In this document: positions 6,997-58,183 of the stretch, piece by piece
Layout of the letters: every line of letters starts with the position of its first letter
How positions within the stretch are numbered: the first letter of the stretch is position 1
DNA from: Candidatus Moraniibacteriota bacterium
Lineage (GTDB): Bacteria; Patescibacteriota; Minisyncoccia; Moranbacterales; UBA1568
Reading direction: 5' to 3'
NCBI GenBank assembly: GCA_016699425.1
Contig: CP064975.1
Coordinates: forward strand, 386,979 to 450,978
Length of the DNA stretch: 64,000 nt
Notes under the pieces: model-generated
What the model was told of the DNA's origin: nothing
The model's input: only the letters and a program-made list of their open reading frames with translations
Databases searched by the model: none
Translations under genes and position numbers: made by a program

Positions 6997-8451
6997 TTGC
7001 GTGAAGAAAGCACTAACTCGATATTTGTTAACGGGGTGAAACGATCGGAAATTTATTTCAGCGCCATCCAACTCCCAGTCGACTTTCTCATGATTGTCCT
7101 CGCGGCGCTTTCGGCCTATGCGGTCCGTGACGTGCCGCAGATCCTCGCTCTTCGGCCCAAGCTCTATTCTGTTGATTTCGTCGATTTTCTCCAGGTGACG
7201 CTCATCATCGCGCCGCTGTTCCTCGTTGTGTACGCGATCGAGGGGCTGTACACGATGCGAGCGACCCGAACAATGCTTTCGGAGGCCTTCAAGGTGTTCC
7301 GTGCGACATCGCTTGTCCTGGTGCTCGTCATTGTGACTATTTTCTTGAAGCGGGAATGGTTCTCTTCGCGATTTATCATTCTCGCCGGGTGGTCGTTCAT
7401 GGTGATGTATGTCACGATTGCGCGTTACCTTATCCAGCGTATTCAGAAATACTACCTGGCAAGGAAAGGTGTTGGCGTGCACCGCATCCTCCTTGTCGGT
7501 ACCAATGGAAAAATCGAACGGCTAAAGAAACTTTTTGCGACGCGGCCGGAGCTCGGATATGTGACCGCCGGACAAGTCGAAGCCGTCTCACTCCACACGA
7601 TCAAGGACATCCGTGCCGCTCACGGCATTGATGAGATCATGGTCTGCGATCCGTCGCTAACCGATGATGAGCAGGAAAAGCTCCTCGACTATTGTCAGAT
7701 CAACAACATCACGTTGAAGTATCTCCCAACGACGCGTGAGACCTCGCGATTCACGATGAGTATCTTCAATGGCGAGCCGATTATCGAGTTTCAACACACT
7801 CCGCTTGATGGCTGGGGGAAAATCTTGAAGCGCGCGTTCGATATCGTTGGCGGTGTGTTCTTGACGATCCTGTTTTCACCTATCATGCTCGCGATCGCGA
7901 TTCTGACGAAGCTGGAGGATCCGGATGGTCCGATCATCTATACCAATGAGCGGATTGGTGAAGACGGGGAGAAGATTTCCGTGTTCAAGTTCCGCTATAT
8001 GCAGTGGAAGTGGTGCATCAACAAGAAGAATCCGAACTTTGGAGCCGCGCTCGAATTTGAAAAGCAGCTCATCGCGGAGCGGAGCGTTCGTCAGGGCCCA
8101 CTCTACAAGATCAAGGATGACCCACGCAAGACAAAAGTGGGTGCGTTCATTGAACGTTACTCACTCGATGAGCTCCCGCAGTTCTTCAATGTGTTGCGTG
8201 GGGAAATGAGTCTGGTGGGCCCCCGACCGCATCAAAAGCGCGAGGTCGAGAAATACAGCGAGTACCATCGTCGGCTGCTCACTATCAAACCGGGAATTAC
8301 TGGCATGGCGCAGGTTTCCGGTCGCTCGGATCTTGATTTCGAAGATGAGTTCCGGCTTGATGTCTTCTATATCGAAAATTGGTCCCTCTGGGTTGATATC
8401 GTGGTTTGCCTGAAGACCGCGGGAGCGCTCCTCCGCCGCCGGAAGAACTAA
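6997..8451 (+). CDS. Polyprenyl-phosphate sugar-1-phosphate transferase (WbaP/EpsB 'bacterial sugar transferase' family)
   Basis: Several N-terminal TM segments. The C-terminal catalytic domain carries …FKFRYM…LDELPQFFNVLRGEMSLVGPRP. The exact start codon is uncertain. Confidence 0.8.
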   Translation: MREESTNSIFVNGVKRSEIYFSAIQLPVDFLMIVLAALSAYAVRDVPQILALRPKLYSVDFVDFLQVTLIIAPLFLVVYAIEGLYTMRATRTMLSEAFKVFRATSLVLVLVIVTIFLKREWFSSRFIILAGWSFMVMYVTIARYLIQRIQKYYLARKGVGVHRILLVGTNGKIERLKKLFATRPELGYVTAGQVEAVSLHTIKDIRAAHGIDEIMVCDPSLTDDEQEKLLDYCQINNITLKYLPTTRETSRFTMSIFNGEPIIEFQHTPLDGWGKILKRAFDIVGGVFLTILFSPIMLAIAILTKLEDPDGPIIYTNERIGEDGEKISVFKFRYMQWKWCINKKNPNFGAALEFEKQLIAERSVRQGPLYKIKDDPRKTKVGAFIERYSLDELPQFFNVLRGEMSLVGPRPHQKREVEKYSEYHRRLLTIKPGITGMAQVSGRSDLDFEDEFRLDVFYIENWSLWVDIVVCLKTAGALLRRRKN

Positions 8452-8584
8452 TAGTAACAGGGTGCTGGGTAGCGAGGGGTGAGTTTTTAGATAATACCGG
8501 ACAGACAAGTTTAGGTGTAGAATAGAGTTACAGATTGGACTCCCTTTCAATTTCTGGCTCCTAACCCCTAATCTTTTCGGTCTT

Positions 8585-8941
8585 ATGAAACTTATTCTGC
8601 GTTGGGCGCTCAGTGCTGGTGCGTTCTGGATCGTCGCTCACTATGTCCCGGGTGTGAGCTTGGCGAGCTGGAAGGTGGCGCTCATTTTGTCGTTCCTCTG
8701 GGGACTCATCGGCTTTACCGTGAAGCCGGTACTCGTGCTCCTGACGCTTCCGATTAATTTCCTGACGTTTGGACTGTTCACGCTCGTCATCAACGGGTTT
8801 CTCCTCTGGCTCCTCGGTGGAGTTGTAAAGGGCTTTGAAGTTGATACGTTTGTCCATGCGATCGTCGGCGCTCTCGCGCTGTCGCTCCTCGTTGGAGTTA
8901 TCAACTGGTTTCTGGATGCTGCTGATCGAGAAGATGACTAA
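8585..8941 (+). CDS. Phage-holin-4/DUF360-like 4-TM membrane protein
   Basis: 118 aa. Matches the YvlD/holin-4 family pattern …VKPVLVLLTLPINFLTFGLFTLVINGFLLWLL…. Confidence 0.55.
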   Translation: MKLILRWALSAGAFWIVAHYVPGVSLASWKVALILSFLWGLIGFTVKPVLVLLTLPINFLTFGLFTLVINGFLLWLLGGVVKGFEVDTFVHAIVGALALSLLVGVINWFLDAADREDD

Positions 8942-8964
8942 GGTCTTTCTTGACTCTACGGTCA

Positions 8965-9657
8965 TTACTCTTTCCGACGAGCGATCCAGGTGAAGAAAAG
9001 AATTCCAAGGAGAAGTCCTGAAACCCCAAGTGTGAGCATCGAACCTTTCGCAATAGCCGGCTTGTACTGTGAAAGCCTGTTTTCTAATGCTTCAATACGC
9101 TCGGTAGGGTTTCCTCCGTTTGGTGCGTAGAGCGGACGGATTTCGAGTGTGCGTCCAAGATAGGTTTTCCCTTTGCCGTGATCAGTATACGAGAGTTCTT
9201 GAGATGACTCTGCTTCGGTGACCCTGATATAGGGCCGCTCCTTCTTTTTCCAGAGGCCTGGATGATATTCAATAGAGAGGCAATAGGAATTGTTTGTGCT
9301 AGCAGGGATGGTGGGAAATACGAAATGAATATCTCGTCTCGTTGGAATCGAGAACATGTTCCGGTTCGCACGGGCGAATACCTTGTGGCATGTCAGGTCC
9401 GACAGTACGAACTCGATCCGTTCACCGAGCCCGAGATCCGTATCGCCCATGAATATCTGAAAGCCTTCAAGTTCGTCCTGGTCCGCAATGAACACTTGAG
9501 TAATCGGGCCATTTGATGAGAGCTCAGCTCGTTTGGTATCCCCAAGAAAGTTCTGTGATGAATCAGGGAAATGAAGCAGGCTGAAGAACGCGACTCCGCA
9601 GGCTCCGATTGTAACGGTGAGGATGAGCGTCTTTGTGTTGAACCGGGCTAATTTCAT
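8965..9657 (-). CDS. Hypothetical exported/membrane-anchored protein
   Basis: Start placed at MKLARFNTKTLILTVTIGACGVAFF, a signal peptide or TM segment. Its ATG overlaps the upstream gene's stop (ATGA). It also has a C-terminal TM segment. Confidence 0.5.
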   Translation of the reverse strand: MKLARFNTKTLILTVTIGACGVAFFSLLHFPDSSQNFLGDTKRAELSSNGPITQVFIADQDELEGFQIFMGDTDLGLGERIEFVLSDLTCHKVFARANRNMFSIPTRRDIHFVFPTIPASTNNSYCLSIEYHPGLWKKKERPYIRVTEAESSQELSYTDHGKGKTYLGRTLEIRPLYAPNGGNPTERIEALENRLSQYKPAIAKGSMLTLGVSGLLLGILFFTWIARRKE

Positions 9658-46910: not shown

Positions 46911-47516
46911 ATGCATCCGAAAACTCAAGAAGCTATTTGGTACGGAGCTTCAGCCAAACATACGGGTAACATCTCGATCAGTGGAGTGCTCCTCGGTGTC
47001 GTTGGGATGACGGGCCTCGTTGCGATCAGTCTCGTTGCTCCAAACGCTCTGAAACTGCTTCAGGCGATACCCACGCGAAATCGCCGCCGATCAGACAAAA
47101 AGTCTATTGATCAAACCCTAGATAAGCTCATCCAACAGCAGCATATCCATAAGGTACGAAAAAATGGAGCAAGTTTTTATATGCTTACCAAGAAAGGGGC
47201 GGCACAGTTGGCGAAGCTGAGACTCTCGATGGGTGCGCTCACTATTCCAAAAAAATGGGATGAAAAGTGGCGTATAGTGACCTATGATATTAGTGAAAAG
47301 CGACGTTCTAAACGAATACTGTTATTGCGAGCCTTATATGAGGCGGGATTTTATCACCTGCAGGATAGCGTGTGGGTTTATCCGTACCCTTGTCGAGAGC
47401 TCAGTGTGTTACTCAAATTTCACTTCGCGCTGGGGAAAGAAGTCTTGTATATTGAAGCAGCAGAAATTGAATTAGAGCCAAAATTGCTCAAACACTTTGG
47501 CCTACAGAGGAACTGA
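46911..47516 (+). CDS. PaaX-family-like wHTH transcriptional regulator (short, 201 aa)
   Basis: A winged-helix wing GASFYMLTKKG resembles PaaX RSFYSLSDKG. A middle-domain motif KKWDEKWRIVTYDISEKRRSKRILLLRALYEAGFYHLQDSVWVYPYP resembles PaaX AWDGKWLLLLSEGLDKS…LIWQGFGALAPSLMASP. Confidence 0.55.
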   Translation: MHPKTQEAIWYGASAKHTGNISISGVLLGVVGMTGLVAISLVAPNALKLLQAIPTRNRRRSDKKSIDQTLDKLIQQQHIHKVRKNGASFYMLTKKGAAQLAKLRLSMGALTIPKKWDEKWRIVTYDISEKRRSKRILLLRALYEAGFYHLQDSVWVYPYPCRELSVLLKFHFALGKEVLYIEAAEIELEPKLLKHFGLQRN

Positions 47517-47634: not shown

Positions 47635-48684
47635 ATGGTTATGTCTGAGAAACTTTCACCAGTATTCAAGAAGATCCCAGTCACTATCCTGACGGGCTTC
47701 CTCGGCGCCGGCAAGACCACGCTCCTCAACCATATTCTCTCGTCCAAGACCGGTGAGAAGATCGTGGTCATCGTCAATGAATTCGGCGCGGTCGGGATCG
47801 ATGGGGCGTTGGTGGTCGGGGGCGAGGAGCACCTCGTCACGCTCGACAATGGCTGCATCTGCTGCACGGTCCGCAATGACTTGGTCGAGACCCTGACTGA
47901 CCTTCTGAAGCGGAAACTCGGCATGGCAGGAGAAATGGCCGAAGCAGGGGAAAGTGCTGCCCCACTTGTTTTCGATCGGATTGTGATCGAGACCACGGGC
48001 TTGGCTGATCCCATCCCGCTCGTCCAGACATTCATGATGGATGATGTCCTCATGGCAGCCTATGAAATAGCGGCCATCGTCACGGTCGTCGATGCCGTCC
48101 ATATCGAAAAGCAGCTCGGGTACCTGCCCGTAGCAGCCGAGCAGATCGCGCTCGCCGACCTCATCCTCCTGTCCAAGACCGATCTCTTCTTGGGCGAGGG
48201 AGAGAGCGAAGAAAGAAAAAAACGTATGTCTGAGATCGAGTCAAAAATTCAAGCCATCAATCCTGCGGCTCCGATCATAGCGACTGTCATGGGAGTGATC
48301 CCGAATGCCGAGCTCTTCCGCGAGCGGCGTTTCTTTGCGGCACCCGAAACCGTCCAAGGACATGACCACACGAGCCATACACACGGCATCTCGAGCGTTG
48401 TTCTAAAAACAGATAAGTTAATCGATATCGACCGGCTTTATGCCTGGATCGGGGAGCTTCAGAATAGCCTCGGCCCCGACCTCCTCCGCTACAAGGGCAT
48501 CATCTATTCGGACGAGTACCCAGGCAAACACGCTGTCCTGCAGGGTGTCCATGCGCTCTATACCGTCACCCCAGACCGCGAGTGGAAAGAAAATGAAAAA
48601 CGCGAATCCGTCATCGTCGTCATCGGCCAAAACCTCGATCGTGAAGCGATAGAACAAGGATTCAAGCGGTCACTAGCAGACTAA
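47635..48684 (+). CDS. COG0523-family GTPase (CobW/YeiR/ZigA-like metallochaperone)
   Basis: Walker A GFLGAGKTTLLNHIL and the metal-binding CXCC motif GCICCT. A C-terminal CobW_C-like domain is present. Confidence 0.85.
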   Translation: MVMSEKLSPVFKKIPVTILTGFLGAGKTTLLNHILSSKTGEKIVVIVNEFGAVGIDGALVVGGEEHLVTLDNGCICCTVRNDLVETLTDLLKRKLGMAGEMAEAGESAAPLVFDRIVIETTGLADPIPLVQTFMMDDVLMAAYEIAAIVTVVDAVHIEKQLGYLPVAAEQIALADLILLSKTDLFLGEGESEERKKRMSEIESKIQAINPAAPIIATVMGVIPNAELFRERRFFAAPETVQGHDHTSHTHGISSVVLKTDKLIDIDRLYAWIGELQNSLGPDLLRYKGIIYSDEYPGKHAVLQGVHALYTVTPDREWKENEKRESVIVVIGQNLDREAIEQGFKRSLAD

Positions 48685-48698
48685 GAGGCAAAAAGAAG

Positions 48699-48730
48699 AC
48701 GACCTCTGAGGTGGGTCGTCGTAGCTTCGG
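48699..48730 (-). terminator. Intrinsic terminator of the secreted-protein gene A (minus strand)
   Basis: Minus-strand hairpin gacgacccacctcagaggtcgtc followed by ttctttttg. It shares the cgtagcttcggttgaagcg tail with the other two terminator copies. Confidence 0.5.
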
Positions 48731-48750
48731 TTGAAGCGCCTTGGTGAACC

Positions 48751-49119
48751 CTAGTTCACCTTCTCGATCATTTTCAGCGGGCCGCTGGAGCAGGGCGATT
48801 GGCCGCCGCAAGGGCAAAGCTTGCCGAACTCGTTCAGCGCAGCTTGGACGGACGTCCACGAATTCGGCGACGCAGCCTTGACCACGGCCAGATCGACCTT
48901 CTCGCGAAGGTGGCGCGGCTGTCCCTTGAGGTTGGCCAAAGCAAAGGTGATCTCCATCATGGTTTCGTGAGGCTTCTCGTCGAAGACCGCGGCCTTGTAG
49001 TTCGAGATGTTGCCAGCGCCGATACCGGCCGCGCGGCAGATGGCTTCGTTGGTCACAGTCTGTGCCAGGGCAGCGGCAGACATGGTAGCGAGAAGGGCAA
49101 TGAGAAGGAACTTGGACAT
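48751..49119 (-). CDS. Small secreted Cys-containing protein, paralog A (122 aa)
   Basis: Signal peptide MSKFLLIALLATMSAAALA. Conserved blocks EAICRAAGIGAGNISNYKA and ALNEFGKLCPCGG. Confidence 0.6.
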   Translation of the reverse strand: MSKFLLIALLATMSAAALAQTVTNEAICRAAGIGAGNISNYKAAVFDEKPHETMMEITFALANLKGQPRHLREKVDLAVVKAASPNSWTSVQAALNEFGKLCPCGGQSPCSSGPLKMIEKVN

Positions 49120-49143
49120 GTTTACACTCCTGTTTGGATTGAC

Positions 49144-49203
49144 GTCTGACGAGGGAATCTCATCAGACTTTATATGATAGCATATAACGTGCCATCAGTC
49201 AAC
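49144..49203 (-). promoter_or_regulatory. Sigma70 promoter (TTGACT-N17-TATCAT) plus 5'-UTR hairpin of paralog A
   Basis: Minus-strand read: TTGACTgatggcacgttatatgcTATCATataaaGTCTGATGAGattccCTCGTCAGAC…aggagtgtaaacATG. Confidence 0.55.
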
Positions 49204-49294
49204 TATTAAAATGAGGCTTGAAAAAGCCAGAATTTGCGAAATATTTTGATTGCTGCTAGTCCGTCACTGTCATGGGTGAGGTCTGTGTAGAATA

Positions 49295-49471
49295 GGGCGG
49301 AGGCTTTGAAGCGCTCGAAAGTCTGGAAGCACAGCGTGCAGGACCGAGAGAATGATCGCGATGGGCAACTGTCGAGGTATAAGGTGCGCAAGCATCCGCG
49401 GAGCCGACCGTGAAATACGCCCCGGGCGTCAAAAGGTGACCGGCATGTCGAGTTGGATGTGCCGTTTTTTT
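49295..49471 (+). ncRNA. Candidate small RNA (copy 1) ending in a rho-independent terminator. It is part of a ~255-bp conserved non-coding module (49276-49530).
   Basis: A possible -10 TAGAAT at 49288-49293. The body carries internal hairpins gcacagcgtgc and acgccccgggcgt. The terminator is ccggcatgtcgagttggatgtgccg plus T9 at 49438-49471. Confidence 0.35.
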
Positions 49472-49477
49472 TTACAC

Positions 49478-49508
49478 AAAAAGAAAACGACCCTCTTGTA
49501 GGCGGGGT
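49478..49508 (-). terminator. Intrinsic terminator of paralog B (minus strand), back-to-back with the plus-strand terminator
   Basis: Minus-strand hairpin cgaccccgcctacaagagggtcg followed by ttttctttttgtgt. Confidence 0.5.
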
Positions 49509-49546
49509 CGTTGTAGCTTCGGTTGAAGCGGCCTCGTGGGACTTAG

Positions 49547-49915
49547 TCAGTCCTTCACCTTCAACGGATTGGTCACCGGCATGGAGCATGGCGCTTGGCC
49601 GCCGCAAGGACAAAGCTTGCCGAACTCGTTCAGCGCGGCTTGGACGGAGGGCCAAGACTTCGGCGAAGCAGCGTTGATCTTGGCGACGTTGACCTTTTCT
49701 TGCAAGTAGCGTGGTTGTTTGGTAAGGCTGACCGTTGCCGACAAGATGACCAGCATCGTCTCGTGGGGTTCCTTGTCGAAGACCGAGGCCTTATAGTTGC
49801 TGATGTTGCCAGCGCCGATACCGGCCGCACGGCAGATGGCCTCGTCAGTCACATCCTGCGCCAGGGCAGTGGCGGACACGAGGGCGAGGGCGGCGATGAT
49901 AAAGAGCTTGAGCAT
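49547..49915 (-). CDS. Small secreted Cys-containing protein, paralog B (122 aa)
   Basis: Start at MLKLFIIAALALVSATALA. It is about 65-70% identical to paralog A, sharing the same ICRAAGIGAGNISNYKA and NEFGKLCPCGG blocks. Confidence 0.6.
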   Translation of the reverse strand: MLKLFIIAALALVSATALAQDVTDEAICRAAGIGAGNISNYKASVFDKEPHETMLVILSATVSLTKQPRYLQEKVNVAKINAASPKSWPSVQAALNEFGKLCPCGGQAPCSMPVTNPLKVKD

Positions 49916-49935
49916 GGAAACCTCCAGTTGTTGAT

Positions 49936-49989
49936 GCCGATGAGAATTCATCGGACTGCATATGATAGCACGTTTTGTGCCATCAGTCA
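49936..49989 (-). promoter_or_regulatory. Sigma70 promoter (TTGACT-N17-TATCAT) plus 5'-UTR hairpin of paralog B
   Basis: Minus-strand read: TTGACTgatggcacaaaacgtgcTATCATatgcagtCCGATGAattcTCATCGGcatcaacaactGGAGGtttccATG. Confidence 0.55.
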
Positions 49990-50083
49990 AACTAAAAAGT
50001 GGCTTTATAGAGCCGTAGTTTTCACTTATTTCTCACCTTGTACTAGTCTTTTTCTGTTACTAGTGAGGCCTGTGTAGGATAGG

Positions 50084-50261
50084 GCGGAGGGCTTTGATGC
50101 GCTCGAAGGTCTGGAAGCACAGCGTGCAGGACCGAGAGAATGATCTCGCGGGCAGCCCCCCGAGGTATACGGTGCGCAAGCATCCGCGGAGCCGACCTTG
50201 AAATACGCCCCGGGCGTCAAAAGGTGACCGGCATGTCGAGTTGGATGTGCCGTTTTTTTTT
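50084..50261 (+). ncRNA. Candidate small RNA (copy 2). It is part of the second ~255-bp conserved module (50063-50320).
   Basis: About 95% nucleotide identity to copy 1, including the identical terminator ccggcatgtcgagttggatgtgccg plus T9 at 50228-50261. Confidence 0.35.
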
Positions 50262-50275
50262 ACACAAAAAGAAAA

Positions 50276-50297
50276 CGACCCTCTTGTAGGCGGGGTC
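50276..50297 (-). terminator. Intrinsic terminator of the secreted-protein gene at 50335-50853 (minus strand)
   Basis: Same hairpin as at 49486-49508, followed by a U-tract. Confidence 0.45.
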
Positions 50298-50334
50298 ATT
50301 ATAGCGTCGGTTGACGCAGCCTATTGCTGCATGG

Positions 50335-50853
50335 CTACCAGGTGGGTACGAACCTGGCCAGCCCAATGGTGTCCAATTTCACGTAGTGGACATAGATTTT
50401 GTGGAGGATGTTCGGAACCTTAATGACGTCATTTCGCCAGTTACGTGATGTCACTGGGTTAATCTCAGCTTGCACGAAGACGCCGTTGCCGTACAGGTTG
50501 CCGGGACCACACTTTGCCTGAATGTGGACGGTTTCGGGCACGCCAATGACATCAACGAAACAACGCCCGGTGCGGTCGGTTTGACGACGGATTTCGTTCG
50601 TGCTTTCAGGAACCTTCGTCCAGTCGTTTCCGACAATCACCCAGCCGTCTTTGGCAAAGGCGGCCTGGATGTCCTTGAATGCAAACTCGACTGCGTTTCT
50701 GTCGGCTTTCGGACTGTCCAGGCGATAGCTCACGGTGATTTCCGGCATCCCCTTCTTCGAGAGGAGTGCGTAGTTGTCCGTGTCTTCGGCATGCGCGCAG
50801 GAAGTGACGATCGACAGCAGGGTGACGAATAGCGTGGTAAGGAACTTGGACAT
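50335..50853 (-). CDS. Secreted/possible lipoprotein, hypothetical (172 aa)
   Basis: Signal peptide MSKFLTTLFVTLLSIVTSCAHA, with a possible lipobox Cys. Its promoter and leader are like those of the two paralogs. Confidence 0.55.
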   Translation of the reverse strand: MSKFLTTLFVTLLSIVTSCAHAEDTDNYALLSKKGMPEITVSYRLDSPKADRNAVEFAFKDIQAAFAKDGWVIVGNDWTKVPESTNEIRRQTDRTGRCFVDVIGVPETVHIQAKCGPGNLYGNGVFVQAEINPVTSRNWRNDVIKVPNILHKIYVHYVKLDTIGLARFVPTW

Positions 50854-50886
50854 GGAAACCTCCGATTAGGTTGGTGCCGACGAGGA

Positions 50887-50941
50887 ATTCATCGGACAAC
50901 ACATGGTAGCATAAAACGTGCTATCAGTCAATATAAAAAGA
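50887..50941 (-). promoter_or_regulatory. Sigma70 promoter (TTGACT-N17-TACCAT) plus 5'-UTR hairpin of the third secreted-protein gene
   Basis: Minus-strand read: TTGACTgatagcacgttttatgcTACCATgtgttgtCCGATGAattccTCGTCGGcaccaacctaatcGGAGGtttccATG. Confidence 0.5.
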
Positions 50942-50966
50942 GGCTTATTGAAGCCGTAAATTTCAC

Positions 50967-52892
50967 TTATTTTTCGGTTCGTTCAAAGATAGCGGCGGTT
51001 TGGCTGGTGTAGAGCTTGGAGAAGGAGTCGGATTTCTCGAACTGCGCCTTGTCGTACTCGGGGTTCACGACGAGATAGCGGACCTCGGTCGTTTTGAAGC
51101 AGGCTTCGCCGAAAGCGGTGTTGGGCGTCGAGATCATCGCGAGGGTGCAGCGCTCACGGCGATTGCCGCCCTCTTCGTAGCGGCCAAAGAGTCCGCGCGA
51201 GAGTGGATAGCCATAGTCGCGGTGGAAGGAGAGCTTCATCCAGGCGTCGGCGGAGAGGTAGTTGTGGTCCTTCAGGATCATGGCGCCATCGGCGTGGTCG
51301 GCCAGGTAGCTAGTCGCCGCAAAGGTCTGGACGAGTTCCTTTGAGCGGTCCTTGGTGCTGAGCGAGCTCGCATTGTCGAAAGAGCCCGAGCCGACGAGGA
51401 AGACGAGGATAGCAGCGGTCGCGAGCATTCGGAAATCCACTGGGAGGTTTGATCGACTCCAGAGCGCGCCAGCGAGCCAGGTGAGTGCGAAAGCGGCCGC
51501 GAGCGCGAGCGGATAGGCCAAGTAGCTCCCGATGCGGCTCGAAGGGATATCGAGGAGGAGAAGATGCGGATACATGGCCATGACGAGGAGGATGCCGCCC
51601 CAGCCGATGACAAACCCGCTCTCGATCGGTCGGCGGCGGACGAAGCCAAGCACGAGAAGAATGCCAAAGACTCCGAGCGCGACTTTTCCCATGCCGATGG
51701 AGTTCGAGACTTGGAAGAAGGAAAGCCCGGTGCGCGTCGTTTTGGTCGGGGTGCCGATAGCGGAATCGATCGCGGCGGTATCGAGATAAGTCGGGAGCAG
51801 GGCGAATCCCATGAAGAGTCCGGCGAGGAGGAGGACTGATAGTACTGCTGGAGAGAAAGCGAGGCGAAGCCAATCACGGAGGAAGTTACGCTTGCTCATC
51901 ATGAGGCCGAGCGCCGTGATGGCGATCGTGCCAGCGAGGATGAATGCCAGGACAAGGGTCGAGAGATGATGAGTGTAGGCGAGGATGAACGCGAAGAACA
52001 GCCCAACCGCGATGAAGACCGAACGTCGCTCATGGAGCCCGCGATAGAAGAGGAGTAGCACCGCCGGGATGAAGAGATTGCCAAAGAGATTGCCCACGAC
52101 GCCGCCAGTCACGAATTTCGCCTGGGGTGAGGCCAAGGCGAAGAGCGGCCCGAGGATGAGGAGAACAAAGAGTGCGACATACTCGGGACGGATGTCTTTC
52201 TCGAACGGCTGCGCGACGCGAAACGCGAGCGCTGTCACTGCGAGGACGGAGAGGAGATTGATGATATGCAGGAAGAGAATCGGGAACGCGCTCGTGAAGT
52301 CGAGGCTCGAAAGTTCGGAGAGAAACGCGAGCGGGAGATGTTCGCCGATGATGAAGTCAGCGATACCGCGGGGCGGGGCGACGGTTGCCGTGCCAGTCGC
52401 GGGATCGACGACGATCTCGATTTTTTCGTAGTTTGGGAGGGCTTTGGTCTCGCGGATCATCTCGGACCAGTAGACATGATGGCCGAGGTCGGTCGCGGTG
52501 GGGAGGATGTTTGGCGCGAGATAGATGGTACGAATGAGAAGGGTCAACGCAAAGAGCACGAAGAAAATACGAAGGCCGTTTTTCGTGAAAGTCGGCACGG
52601 GATCGTTTATAGTCCCGGCAAGGGGCTTCTTCGCCCAGAGTATCGCTCCACCCAAGAGGATAAGGAAGACAAGTGAACTGCCGACATACGGGAGCGAGAG
52701 CGGGAGACCGAACCGTCCGAGGAGGAGCATGATGAGATCGATCGCTGCGAGGCTCGTGAGGAAGCTGAAGACGATCTCTTCTAATCCAGAGAACACGCGG
52801 CTGAAAATCGCGCGCCACCAGATGAAACCGGGGACGAAGAAAGCGCCGATGAGGGCGAGGAGGAATGCGGCGGTATGGAGGAGTGCGTCCAT
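50967..52892 (-). CDS. Large polytopic membrane protein (641 aa), possibly a GT-C-like glycosyltransferase or polymerase
   Basis: About 14 TM segments followed by a C-terminal soluble domain. No diagnostic motif. Confidence 0.45.
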   Translation of the reverse strand: MDALLHTAAFLLALIGAFFVPGFIWWRAIFSRVFSGLEEIVFSFLTSLAAIDLIMLLLGRFGLPLSLPYVGSSLVFLILLGGAILWAKKPLAGTINDPVPTFTKNGLRIFFVLFALTLLIRTIYLAPNILPTATDLGHHVYWSEMIRETKALPNYEKIEIVVDPATGTATVAPPRGIADFIIGEHLPLAFLSELSSLDFTSAFPILFLHIINLLSVLAVTALAFRVAQPFEKDIRPEYVALFVLLILGPLFALASPQAKFVTGGVVGNLFGNLFIPAVLLLFYRGLHERRSVFIAVGLFFAFILAYTHHLSTLVLAFILAGTIAITALGLMMSKRNFLRDWLRLAFSPAVLSVLLLAGLFMGFALLPTYLDTAAIDSAIGTPTKTTRTGLSFFQVSNSIGMGKVALGVFGILLVLGFVRRRPIESGFVIGWGGILLVMAMYPHLLLLDIPSSRIGSYLAYPLALAAAFALTWLAGALWSRSNLPVDFRMLATAAILVFLVGSGSFDNASSLSTKDRSKELVQTFAATSYLADHADGAMILKDHNYLSADAWMKLSFHRDYGYPLSRGLFGRYEEGGNRRERCTLAMISTPNTAFGEACFKTTEVRYLVVNPEYDKAQFEKSDSFSKLYTSQTAAIFERTEK

Positions 52893-57811: not shown

Positions 57812-57877
57812 TGGACAAGAGTGGCAAAAGATGCTATAGCGGCCAGTCCGATGAATCCTCATCGGCATGACAACGGA
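57812..57877 (+). promoter_or_regulatory. Promoter (TGGACA-N17-TATAGC) plus 5'-UTR hairpin of the 57878 gene. It matches the leader motif of the secreted-protein genes.
   Basis: Plus-strand read: TGGACAagagtggcaaaagatgcTATAGCggccagtCCGATGAatccTCATCGGcatgacaacGGAGGgtttgagATG. Confidence 0.45.
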
Positions 57878-58183
57878 GGGTTTGAGATGGCGAAAGATCT
57901 TGGTTTCGTTAAGCTGCGTCAGGGGAAGGAAAACCTGGTTCTGGAAATCCACCCCATTAGTTCCATGCAAGTCGTATGTCACCGGTTTCTGCAAGACACG
58001 CCCCACTTGATGCAAGTGGAAGTCGGGTCGCAAGTCTTTCCCGTCCCAATTGAAACCGTCAGGCGTCACTTGACGCTGGGGCAGATGGTGAGTGGGTACT
58101 TCGTTACCTACTGCGGGTCTTTGACTGATCCAGTCTGTGTCTCAGCTGATTTCTTTCCGACGCCTGAGCCGTCAGTGGACTAG
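57878..58183 (+). CDS. Hypothetical protein (101 aa)
   Basis: ORF preceded by a GGAGG ribosome-binding site and the conserved leader hairpin. Confidence 0.4.
   Translation, partial: GFEMAKDLGFVKLRQGKENLVLEIHPISSMQVVCHRFLQDTPHLMQVEVGSQVFPVPIETVRRHLTLGQMVSGYFVTYCGSLTDPVCVSADFFPTPEPSVD

Follow-up and report, generated by a model that had tools for sequence, protein, structure and literature searches.

Putative L1-stalk-like RNA genes and predicted secreted-protein cassettes in a hypervariable chromosomal hotspot of Candidatus Moraniibacteriota

We analysed a stretch of 64,000 nucleotides (nt) from the chromosome of Candidatus Moraniibacteriota bacterium (contig CP064975.1, positions 386,979 to 450,978 of the forward strand; hereafter the window), in which three minus-strand genes for small, putatively secreted proteins (genes A, B and C) are interspersed with two plus-strand copies of an element that resembles the L1-stalk head of 23S rRNA. 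They occupy a hypervariable hotspot at the edge of a cell-envelope glycosylation cluster. As a whole, the locus is best explained as a tandemly expanded hotspot array in which secreted-protein cassettes alternate with L1-stalk-like RNA genes, and we put the probability of this explanation at roughly 0.6. The coordinates of the features are collected in Table 1.

Anatomy and conservation of the L1-stalk-like RNA

A 233-nt direct repeat, 92% identical between its two copies (49302-49534 and 50090-50322), lies between the genes. Judged from its sequence, this repeat would be a plus-strand RNA gene, which the original prediction had overlooked, and not only terminator sequence. We marked it as an RNA gene because a terminator consisting of a perfect hairpin and U9 lies directly 3′ and because it matches the bacterial large-subunit rRNA (LSU) model of Rfam. 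Each copy of the RNA is approximately 210 nt long and convergent to the cassettes. In a 5-kb search the LSU match lay on the plus strand and covered model positions 2128-2213 only. With gathering thresholds, Rfam 15 gave no match in the whole window, and at an expectation value (E) ≤1 over 47-52 kb it returned only the two partial LSU matches and noise. No tRNA, tmRNA or rRNA gene reached the threshold in the window, so that the RNA is not embedded in a full-length LSU gene, and no ribosomal protein gene was found within 5 kb of either copy. We also considered an open reading frame (ORF) in the RNA region and rejected it, as single-nucleotide indels between the homologs break the frames.

The L1-stalk head in 23S rRNA (helices 76-78; H76-H78) binds the ribosomal protein uL1 and docks the elbow of the E-site tRNA. 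The core of the RNA corresponds to the distal part of H76, H77, the base of H78 and both T-loop strands. Its strands are 85-95% identical to E. coli 23S rRNA at about 2110-2179, the identity of the 70-nt E. coli comparison sequence having been confirmed; the strands that match the E. coli stalk head read UGUGUAGGAUAGG(N)GGAGGCUUUGA on the 5′ side and GGAGCCGACCUUGAAAUAC(N)CCC on the 3′ side. The universally conserved unpaired nucleotides of the L1 stalk, GUGUAGGAUAGG, GGAG, GGAGCC and UUGAAAUAC, are all present and invariant in the five homologs. Among them, GUGUAGGAUAGG and UUGAAAUAC form the two T-loop strands, and GGGAGGC/GGAGCC are the nucleotides of the uL1 site. H77 is 100% paired and H76 80%. 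The changes in H77 relative to E. coli are compensatory (U-A to G-C and G-C to C-G), and within the family C-G is changed to U-A and G-C to G-U in locus L001. In place of the H78 tip, for which the Rfam consensus has 14 nt, there is a conserved 83-nt insert predicted to fold as three hairpins, one of which has a GCAA loop while another is variable in sequence yet still a hairpin.

We found homologs of the RNA in the related loci L001/L002, L014 and L015 with 83-95% identity. The covariance model built from them (R1) scored 160-192 bits on the RNA loci and picked up no further element when applied to the window and 25 other related loci. Pattern scanning of genome contigs yielded one true match (L014) and one chance match (L013), and the metagenome scan yielded L015 and L016. 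In the proposed structure, 93% of the cells are paired, compared with 36-48% for slid controls. Three pairs change on both sides, and 3-37 of 500 shuffles reach the observed values in this set of five close sequences.

The RNA diverges slowly compared with its surroundings. Its Jukes-Cantor distance is 0.06-0.21, against a synonymous divergence (dS) of 1.1-1.3 for cobW (window versus L001, L014 and L015) and 0.34-0.67 for the cassette genes, which makes the RNA 5-20 times slower than the synonymous sites of cobW and 2-5 times slower than those of the cassettes. Conservation is uneven along the RNA: the L1 core, two of the insert hairpins and the terminator are 87-93% identical, the 5′ leader 74% and the variable hairpin 67%. 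The terminator stands in rRNA-sense orientation and is kept in all five homologs.

A second element of this kind was found with a gapped L1-core pattern on an unrelated contig (L016, 4770-4917, minus strand), where it also stands alone. It scores 20.4 bits with the LSU model and 35.9 bits with R1 (E 4e-7), and combines the same core with a 73-nt branched H78 insert, directly followed by a CCCG-GUUCG-CGGG hairpin and a U-run. The contig encodes a DUF932 protein and many small acidic ORFs and looks like a mobile element. In scans of viral contigs, no L1-like RNA appeared beyond three L1 stalks of ordinary length at contig ends, which are probably rRNA, and the phage genome collection gave no match. 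Plasmids gave only partial matches in unannotated stretches of large replicons; these are consistent with ordinary 23S rRNA genes, which are not listed in the PLSDB table.

The candidate promoter of RNA copy 1 is TTGAAA-N16/18-AATATT/TATTTT at 49218-49247. Other homologs have weaker TTGAtA-N17-TATyTc candidates, which derive partly from the duplicated 3′ end of the 641-amino-acid (aa) gene. A role as antisense regulator of the cassettes was considered and rejected: the longest Watson-Crick match to the 5′ untranslated regions (UTRs) of the cassettes is 5-7 nt, and RNA-UTR duplex energies lie within about 1.7 standard deviations of those of shuffled UTRs. A functional tie to the cysteine-containing (Cys) proteins encoded by B and C was likewise rejected, since the partners of the RNA differ by locus and distant Cys-protein loci are devoid of it. 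The absence of 5′-UTR complementarity and the varying gene partners suggest that the RNA is an independent accessory unit which does not regulate the cassettes. Its position, downstream of cobW and on the cobW strand, is common to all loci. In L015, RNA (1-190) and cobW (216-1250) are both on the minus strand, so that the RNA begins approximately 30 nt past the cobW stop codon with no cassette between them, which suggests that it is transcribed together with cobW or originated as the cobW 3′UTR.

Possible function of the RNA

We infer that the RNA folds as an L1-stalk head and binds a ligand of the L1 stalk. The most likely ligand would be uL1, because the RNA has the complete protein site and because uL1 is known to bind rRNA as well as mRNA targets, non-ribosomal mimics included (PMC2175363). 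Alternatively, the ligand would be the tRNA elbow, engaged through the T-loop dock that the L1 stalk has in common with T-box Stem I and RNase P (PMC3664808, PMC4810234). Tentatively, and with less than an even chance, the RNA may represent a functional new class of noncoding RNA, a free-standing mimic of the whole L1-stalk head with a branched H78 that would serve off the ribosome as a decoy, buffer or sensor for uL1 or the tRNA elbow. On this reading the RNAs would be accessory, horizontally exchanged elements, as exemplified by L016 on a contig resembling a mobile genetic element.

Several points weigh against the explanation proposed here. The covariation statistics are modest and come from five close sequences, and the minimum free energies of the whole RNAs have z-scores of only -0.06 and -1.15. 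The RNA was found in only five loci of one narrow clade, in addition to L016. It is dispensable, being missing from L031, L017-L026, L032 and L033; in L031, gene A is 97% identical to that of the window and no RNA accompanies it. The low divergence of the RNA could partly reflect recent horizontal exchange of the hotspot content. Its own promoter is weak and uncertain, and it may sometimes be a product of the cobW 3′UTR or have begun as an element of that 3′UTR. A recent origin from the 23S rRNA gene of the organism itself may also be considered. Finally, transcription starts, RNA ends and secretion are all predictions.

It is rather unlikely, although part of the evidence points that way, that the L1-like elements are non-functional relics, in which a 23S rRNA fragment with an H78 expansion was captured and then passively copied with the 790-bp duplication. 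The narrow distribution and the dispensability in close relatives would agree with such an origin, whereas the well-formed, rRNA-sense terminator after each copy, kept in all five homologs, would not be expected of a relic. The RNA travels with the duplicated unit and yet is far more conserved than the synonymous sites of either cobW or the cassettes, and the rate differences along its length fit its modules. Against the weak covariation statistics and the lack of a strong promoter, the unpaired L1 nucleotides are invariant while paired positions change in a compensatory manner, and the unrelated element in L016 repeats the architecture, terminator included. Also in favour of a relic, the rRNA genes of the candidate phyla radiation (CPR) are known for insertions and its L1 stalk region is evolutionarily labile (PMC9297842). 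What probability these two readings leave falls to RNAs that function in other, undefined roles.

uL1 is missing from a subgroup of the Parcubacteria and H78 has been lost in several CPR lineages (PMC9297842), which is suggestive context but not evidence for a function of the RNA. If the RNA does bind uL1 or tRNA, it would represent a new kind of off-ribosome regulator or decoy and give a handle on the lability of the L1 stalk in CPR ribosomes. If it is a relic only, it still documents the capture of an rRNA fragment in a recombination hotspot.

Predicted secreted-protein cassettes in a variable hotspot

The original prediction had described the three genes as built from a common promoter-leader-terminator cassette, and every sequence feature that it listed for the cassette is present, far beyond chance. 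The promoters are near-identical, TTGACT-17-TATCAT in B and C and TTGACT-17-TACCAT in A, all with a TG extension, and a consensus scan found five promoter-like sites in 2.9 kb, compared with 1.2 ± 1.0 in shuffles. All three genes have a stem-loop at the mRNA 5′ end as predicted from the promoter position (-9.7 to -15.7 kcal/mol; z -3.2 to -5.7), and 0-1 of 200 shuffles fold equally well. In 11 of 11 promoters the hairpin starts 5 nt past the -10 hexamer, that is, at the predicted +1 or within 1-2 nt of it. The Shine-Dalgarno (SD) sequence is GGAGG 5 nt before the ATG in A and B, and AGGAG 7 nt before it in C. The common intrinsic terminator consists of a 6-7 bp G+C stem followed by a U-run (z -2.2 to -2.5); its loop has 9-11 nt, hence it was missed by a simple terminator scan. 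A small 3′UTR hairpin with an AACC loop precedes each terminator, with a compensatory change of U-A to G-C in cassette A.

The pairing of the leader hairpin survives sequence change (GUCCGAUGA/UCGUCGGC, GUCUGAUGAG/CUCGUCAGAC and GUCAAGUGAGA/UCUCGCUGAC), including the distant L003 and C. As the original prediction had proposed, the locus is modular: within the clade, one 5′ module and one 3′ module flank at least three unrelated cargo families, namely the Cys protein, the gene-A family and a secreted family comprising L001_156, L014_a and L017_166. The promoter and leader precede these three families in L001, L014, L017 and L031, and two unrelated cargos in L014 carry an identical signal peptide. 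The leader occurs a fourth time, behind a more divergent promoter, ahead of a gene without a signal peptide (Table 1), which suggests that the leader is a general expression element of the lineage and not specific to secretion.

The products begin with plausible signal peptides, in which K3 and a hydrophobic core are followed by ALA-Q (B and C) or AHA-E (A) around the cleavage site, with A at positions -3 and -1. In a heuristic check, the Kyte-Doolittle hydropathy was 2.5-3.3 over residues 4-16 and the maximum over 19 aa past residue 25 was ≤0.77, with no later transmembrane segment detected in A, B or C. The A-x-A motif is conserved in the homologs of both protein families, and by these heuristics the proteins qualify as substrates of Sec and signal peptidase I. 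For gene A, a lipoprotein was considered and rejected: the Cys of VTSC (Cys19) is missing or shifted in three of six homologs, another has F at -1, and A-x-A is invariant, so that there is no conserved lipobox ([LVI][ASTVI][GAS]C).

B and C are paralogs with 68% identity and the invariant residues C28, C102, C104 and C110 (C...CPC...C), the last three within a conserved CPCGGQxPC segment. Their family comprises 13 clusters among 5.8 billion sequences, all from Moraniibacteriota-like metagenomes, and a profile search of 1.84 billion representatives for remote homologs returned only its own cluster. The gene-A family has five members, all Moraniibacteriota-like. Neither family matched Pfam, NCBIfam or PDB sequences. 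The AlphaFold2 model of the Cys protein, based on a 13-sequence alignment, is a small all-alpha core with a predicted local distance difference test score (pLDDT) >90 for residues approximately 30-100, and Foldseek found no match for it in PDB or BFVD. The gene-A model is poor (pLDDT 57) and gave no fold match. The original prediction would have been overturned by a mundane known family or by missing signal peptides; no known family was matched. In the more distant L005-L008, a DsbB homolog is encoded two genes away from the Cys-protein gene, which fits disulfide formation in an exported protein; the Cys-protein gene is also convergent to a gene for an HI0933-like flavoprotein.

The dN/dS ratio (nonsynonymous to synonymous divergence) of the Cys-protein genes is 0.3-0.6, indicating real coding genes under purifying selection. 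Over nt 1-150 and 301-360 the L001 Cys gene shares 96-100% identity with B, and over nt 211-330 it shares 95-98% with C, while one central segment shows 55-60% identity between allele groups. By this pattern, the alleles of the Cys paralogs read as recombination mosaics. The locus had also been called diversifying, which stands as far as mosaic recombination and the variable central segment are concerned, but the overall dN/dS speaks for purifying selection. The cassette products make up new orphan families of an unexceptional type: small proteins, secreted by prediction, that share an expression module.

Around the array, synteny extends over approximately 15 related loci, with RtcB, GT4, a 120-aa gene and cobW forming one flank and the 640-aa membrane protein, GT4, GT2 and UDP-glucose dehydrogenase the opposite one. 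These flanks are conserved, and the cargo between cobW and the 640-aa gene changes in almost every related locus (Table 1). L014 and L031 are two contigs of one metagenome-assembled genome (assembly JBATNG01) with different versions of the hotspot, which points to strain-level presence/absence variation inside one population. In view of the higher dS of cobW, the hotspot content appears to have been exchanged among lineages later than the flanking core genes diverged. No integrase was found in the neighbourhood in the window or in the syntenic loci. In the hotspot of L018, a reverse transcriptase gene (RVT_1; 7324-9441, minus strand) beside the fn3-like gene may belong to a diversity-generating retroelement. 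In the window, a plus-strand gene between a 134-aa gene and cobW (46911-47516) encodes a 201-aa protein with the central (Cas2-like) domain of PaaX. Relatives lack this gene in their syntenic loci, which marks it as one more strain-specific insertion, and on the same ground we rejected its product as a cassette regulator.

Within the array, direct-repeat families D1-D9 recur at a spacing of 788-796 bp, from which we conclude that it arose by tandem duplication. In the mechanism that we propose, each cassette would consist of a short insulating hairpin, a strong extended -10 promoter of the sigma70 type and an mRNA that starts directly with a stem-loop, which we infer to stabilise its 5′ end. 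A strong SD sequence, a Sec signal peptide cut at A-x-A, a cargo of approximately 100-150 aa with Cys residues probably in disulfides, the 3′ hairpin and the terminator would follow, and the outcome would be high-level expression of small Sec-exported proteins. The conserved 5′ and 3′ modules may supply homology for unequal crossing-over and gene conversion, and such module-to-module recombination would explain the 788-796-bp tandem duplication, the mosaic alleles and the differing sets of cargo. In an episymbiotic CPR cell, the products likely belong to the envelope or serve in host interaction. The array would exemplify how a CPR bacterium with a 1.2-Mb genome makes and shuffles highly expressed extracellular proteins by means of one portable promoter-leader-signal-peptide-terminator module in a strain-variable hotspot, and its proteins are candidate envelope or host-interaction factors in organisms that have yet to be grown alone.

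The original prediction had placed the array next to a COG0523 metallochaperone and drawn a parallel to zinc- or metal-scavenging loci. The neighbour is indeed a cobW-family gene (Pfam cobW 6.5e-52 and CobW_C 4.1e-21, with NCBIfam matches too), but a functional tie to it is not supported. The array adjoins cobW in the window, L001, L014, L017 and L031, but the Cys-protein homologs of L003-L012 are away from cobW, and the cobW orthologs of L018-L026, L032 and L033 have none of the array's protein genes beside them. Adjacency to cobW is therefore positional, a consequence of a variable insertion hotspot.

We consider it improbable that the Cys proteins are zinc or metal scavengers co-regulated with cobW, with the CPC...C cysteines as a metal site and a Zur-type operator at the promoters. 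A 23-bp palindrome, TGATRGCA-N7-TGCYATCA, does lie in the -35/-10 spacer of each cassette (49175-49197, 49963-49985 and 50904-50926), overlapping the promoter, with eight matches in the window against 0.98 expected. Six of these come from reading the three cassette promoters on both strands, and the remaining two, with three mismatches each, lie elsewhere in the window. The right arm, however, is the extended -10 itself, and the palindrome was not found upstream of cobW or in the promoters of more distant homologs. Within the limits set by the undefined Zur motif of this lineage, no Zur-type operator common to cobW and the cassettes was found; the palindrome is restricted to the three cassettes. 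It could serve as an operator, yet no observation connects it with zinc. The four invariant Cys residues would suit a metal site, but the protein lacks a His-rich or other known metal-site signature, and Cys residues in Sec-exported extracytoplasmic proteins more often form disulfides, in line with DsbB near the homologs in L005-L008.

That the cassettes encode bacteriocin-like toxins, immunity proteins or other antagonistic effectors, with recombination as the source of their diversity, seems most improbable, because these small, secreted, Cys-containing and lineage-restricted products, for all their mosaic alleles and strain-specific cargo, have a Sec signal peptide and not a double-glycine leader, have cobW, glycosyltransferases and a membrane protein as neighbours in place of adjacent ABC exporter, immunity, modification or toxin-domain genes, combine dN/dS of 0.3-0.6 with a highly conserved N-terminal motif, DEAICRAAGIGAGNISNYK, and match nothing in Pfam, NCBIfam, PDB or BFVD.

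Table 1. Positions of the features in the window, followed by the content of the hotspot in related loci
Feature	Position	Strand	Description
Gene A	50335..50853	minus	172-aa orphan, predicted secreted; signal peptide 1-22, AHA-E; two conserved Cys in the mature part
Gene B	49547..49915	minus	122-aa Cys protein, predicted secreted (IPJ68_02135); ATG of MLKLF; signal peptide 1-19, ALA-Q; C...CPC...C
Gene C	48751..49119	minus	122-aa Cys protein, predicted secreted (IPJ68_02130); paralog of B
L1-stalk-like RNA, copy 1	49256..49473	plus	L1 core 49277-49431; terminator hairpin 49441-49464 and U9; Rfam LSU 30.2 bits, E 1.7e-6; R1 180 bits
L1-stalk-like RNA, copy 2	50043..50261	plus	L1 core 50064-50219; 83-nt branched insert for the H78 tip; terminator hairpin 50229-50252 and U9; Rfam LSU 24.2 bits, E 1.7e-4; R1 192 bits
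5′ module A	50859..50955	minus	Upstream hairpin and T-run 50955-50942; -35 TTGACT 50931-50926; extended -10 TGcTACCAT to 50903; 5′ hairpin 50897-50876; SD GGAGG 50863-50859
5′ module B	49921..50016	minus	Upstream hairpin 50016-49999; promoter 49990-49962; 5′ hairpin 49956-49936; SD 49925-49921
5′ module C	49127..49228	minus	Upstream hairpin 49228-49215; promoter 49202-49174; 5′ hairpin 49168-49144; SD AGGAG 49131-49127
3′ module A	50266..50317	minus	Hairpin GCGUC-AACC-GACGC 50317-50304, then intrinsic terminator and U-run; repeat families D5 and D7
3′ module B	49478..49529	minus	Hairpin GCUUC-AACC-GAAGC 49529-49516; terminator and U-run 49510-49478
3′ module C	48690..48737	minus	Hairpin GCUUC-AACC-GAAGC 48737-48724; terminator 48720-48698 and U-run
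Fourth leader copy (GTCCGATGAATCCTCATCGGC)	57846-57866 (gene 57887-58183)	plus	-10, 5′ hairpin and SD before a non-secreted 98-aa orphan; promoter more divergent
COG0523 (cobW-family) GTPase gene	47635..48684	plus	Conserved flank on one side of the hotspot; lies upstream of the L1-like RNAs, on their strand
641-aa polytopic membrane protein gene	50967..52892	minus	No family match; other conserved flank; first gene of the glycosyltransferase cluster
Hotspot, window			640-aa gene to cobW: A-RNA-B-RNA-C
Hotspot, L001			640-aa gene to cobW: 229aa-Cys-RNA-156aa
Hotspot, L014			640-aa gene to cobW: 163aa-cargo-RNA-Cys
Hotspot, L031			640-aa gene to cobW: gene A only
Hotspot, L017			640-aa gene to cobW: DUF1697 and one cassette
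Hotspot, L018			640-aa gene to cobW: reverse transcriptase and fn3-like gene
Hotspots, L019-L026, L032, L033			640-aa gene to cobW: other small genes

Comparison with known systems

The cassette array resembles integron arrays in its variable single-gene units, conserved boundaries, fixed chromosomal site and differences between strains. In contrast to integron cassettes, its units carry their own promoter and terminator, and there is no integrase or attC-like site. Turnover is best explained by homologous recombination between the 5′ and 3′ modules. The leaders of E. coli ompA and B. subtilis aprE are 5′-terminal stem-loops that stabilise highly expressed mRNAs. The cassette leaders share with them a stable hairpin at, or within 1-2 nt of, the predicted +1 and a strong SD sequence, here on unrelated genes. 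Unlike a pure stabiliser, the cassette leader, GUCCGAUGA...UCGUCGGCAUCA, is more conserved than that role needs, and it may therefore have a protein-binding role as well.

Compared with the L1 stalk of 23S rRNA, the RNA has the same strands, 85-95% identical, the same pairing in H77 and distal H76, and both T-loop strands intact. It differs in lying outside an rRNA gene as a stand-alone unit of approximately 210 nt with its own terminator, present in two copies and variable between strains. Only the distal 9 bp of H76 are present, closing on themselves, and the H78 tip is the 83-nt three-hairpin insert instead of 14 nt.

The known uL1 sites in mRNA, in the L11 operon of bacteria and the L1 operon of archaea, are short cis-acting mimics in ribosomal protein mRNAs, formed by a helix and an asymmetric loop. 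Like these operon leaders, the RNA is non-ribosomal and reproduces the uL1 recognition surface. Unlike them, it does not lie beside rplK/rplA, is a putatively independent unit and reproduces the entire stalk head, T-loops included; it matches no leader family in Rfam and lacks the cis location in a ribosomal protein mRNA that defines the operon sites. An interdigitated T-loop module is shared by the L1-stalk head, the distal region of T-box Stem I and RNase P (PMC3664808, PMC4810234). Among these elbow docks the RNA keeps the L1 version of the module, and its extra hairpins could add contacts, by analogy with T-boxes. It contains neither a specifier nor an antiterminator or T-box sequence, and downstream of it lies no same-strand gene that it might regulate.

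A free-standing mimic of the L1 stalk is not described in Rfam 15 or in the literature found by full-text search. Mimicry of rRNA by short ribosomal protein sites is already known, whereas a stand-alone, terminator-bounded L1-stalk head with an added branched domain, as predicted here, would be new.

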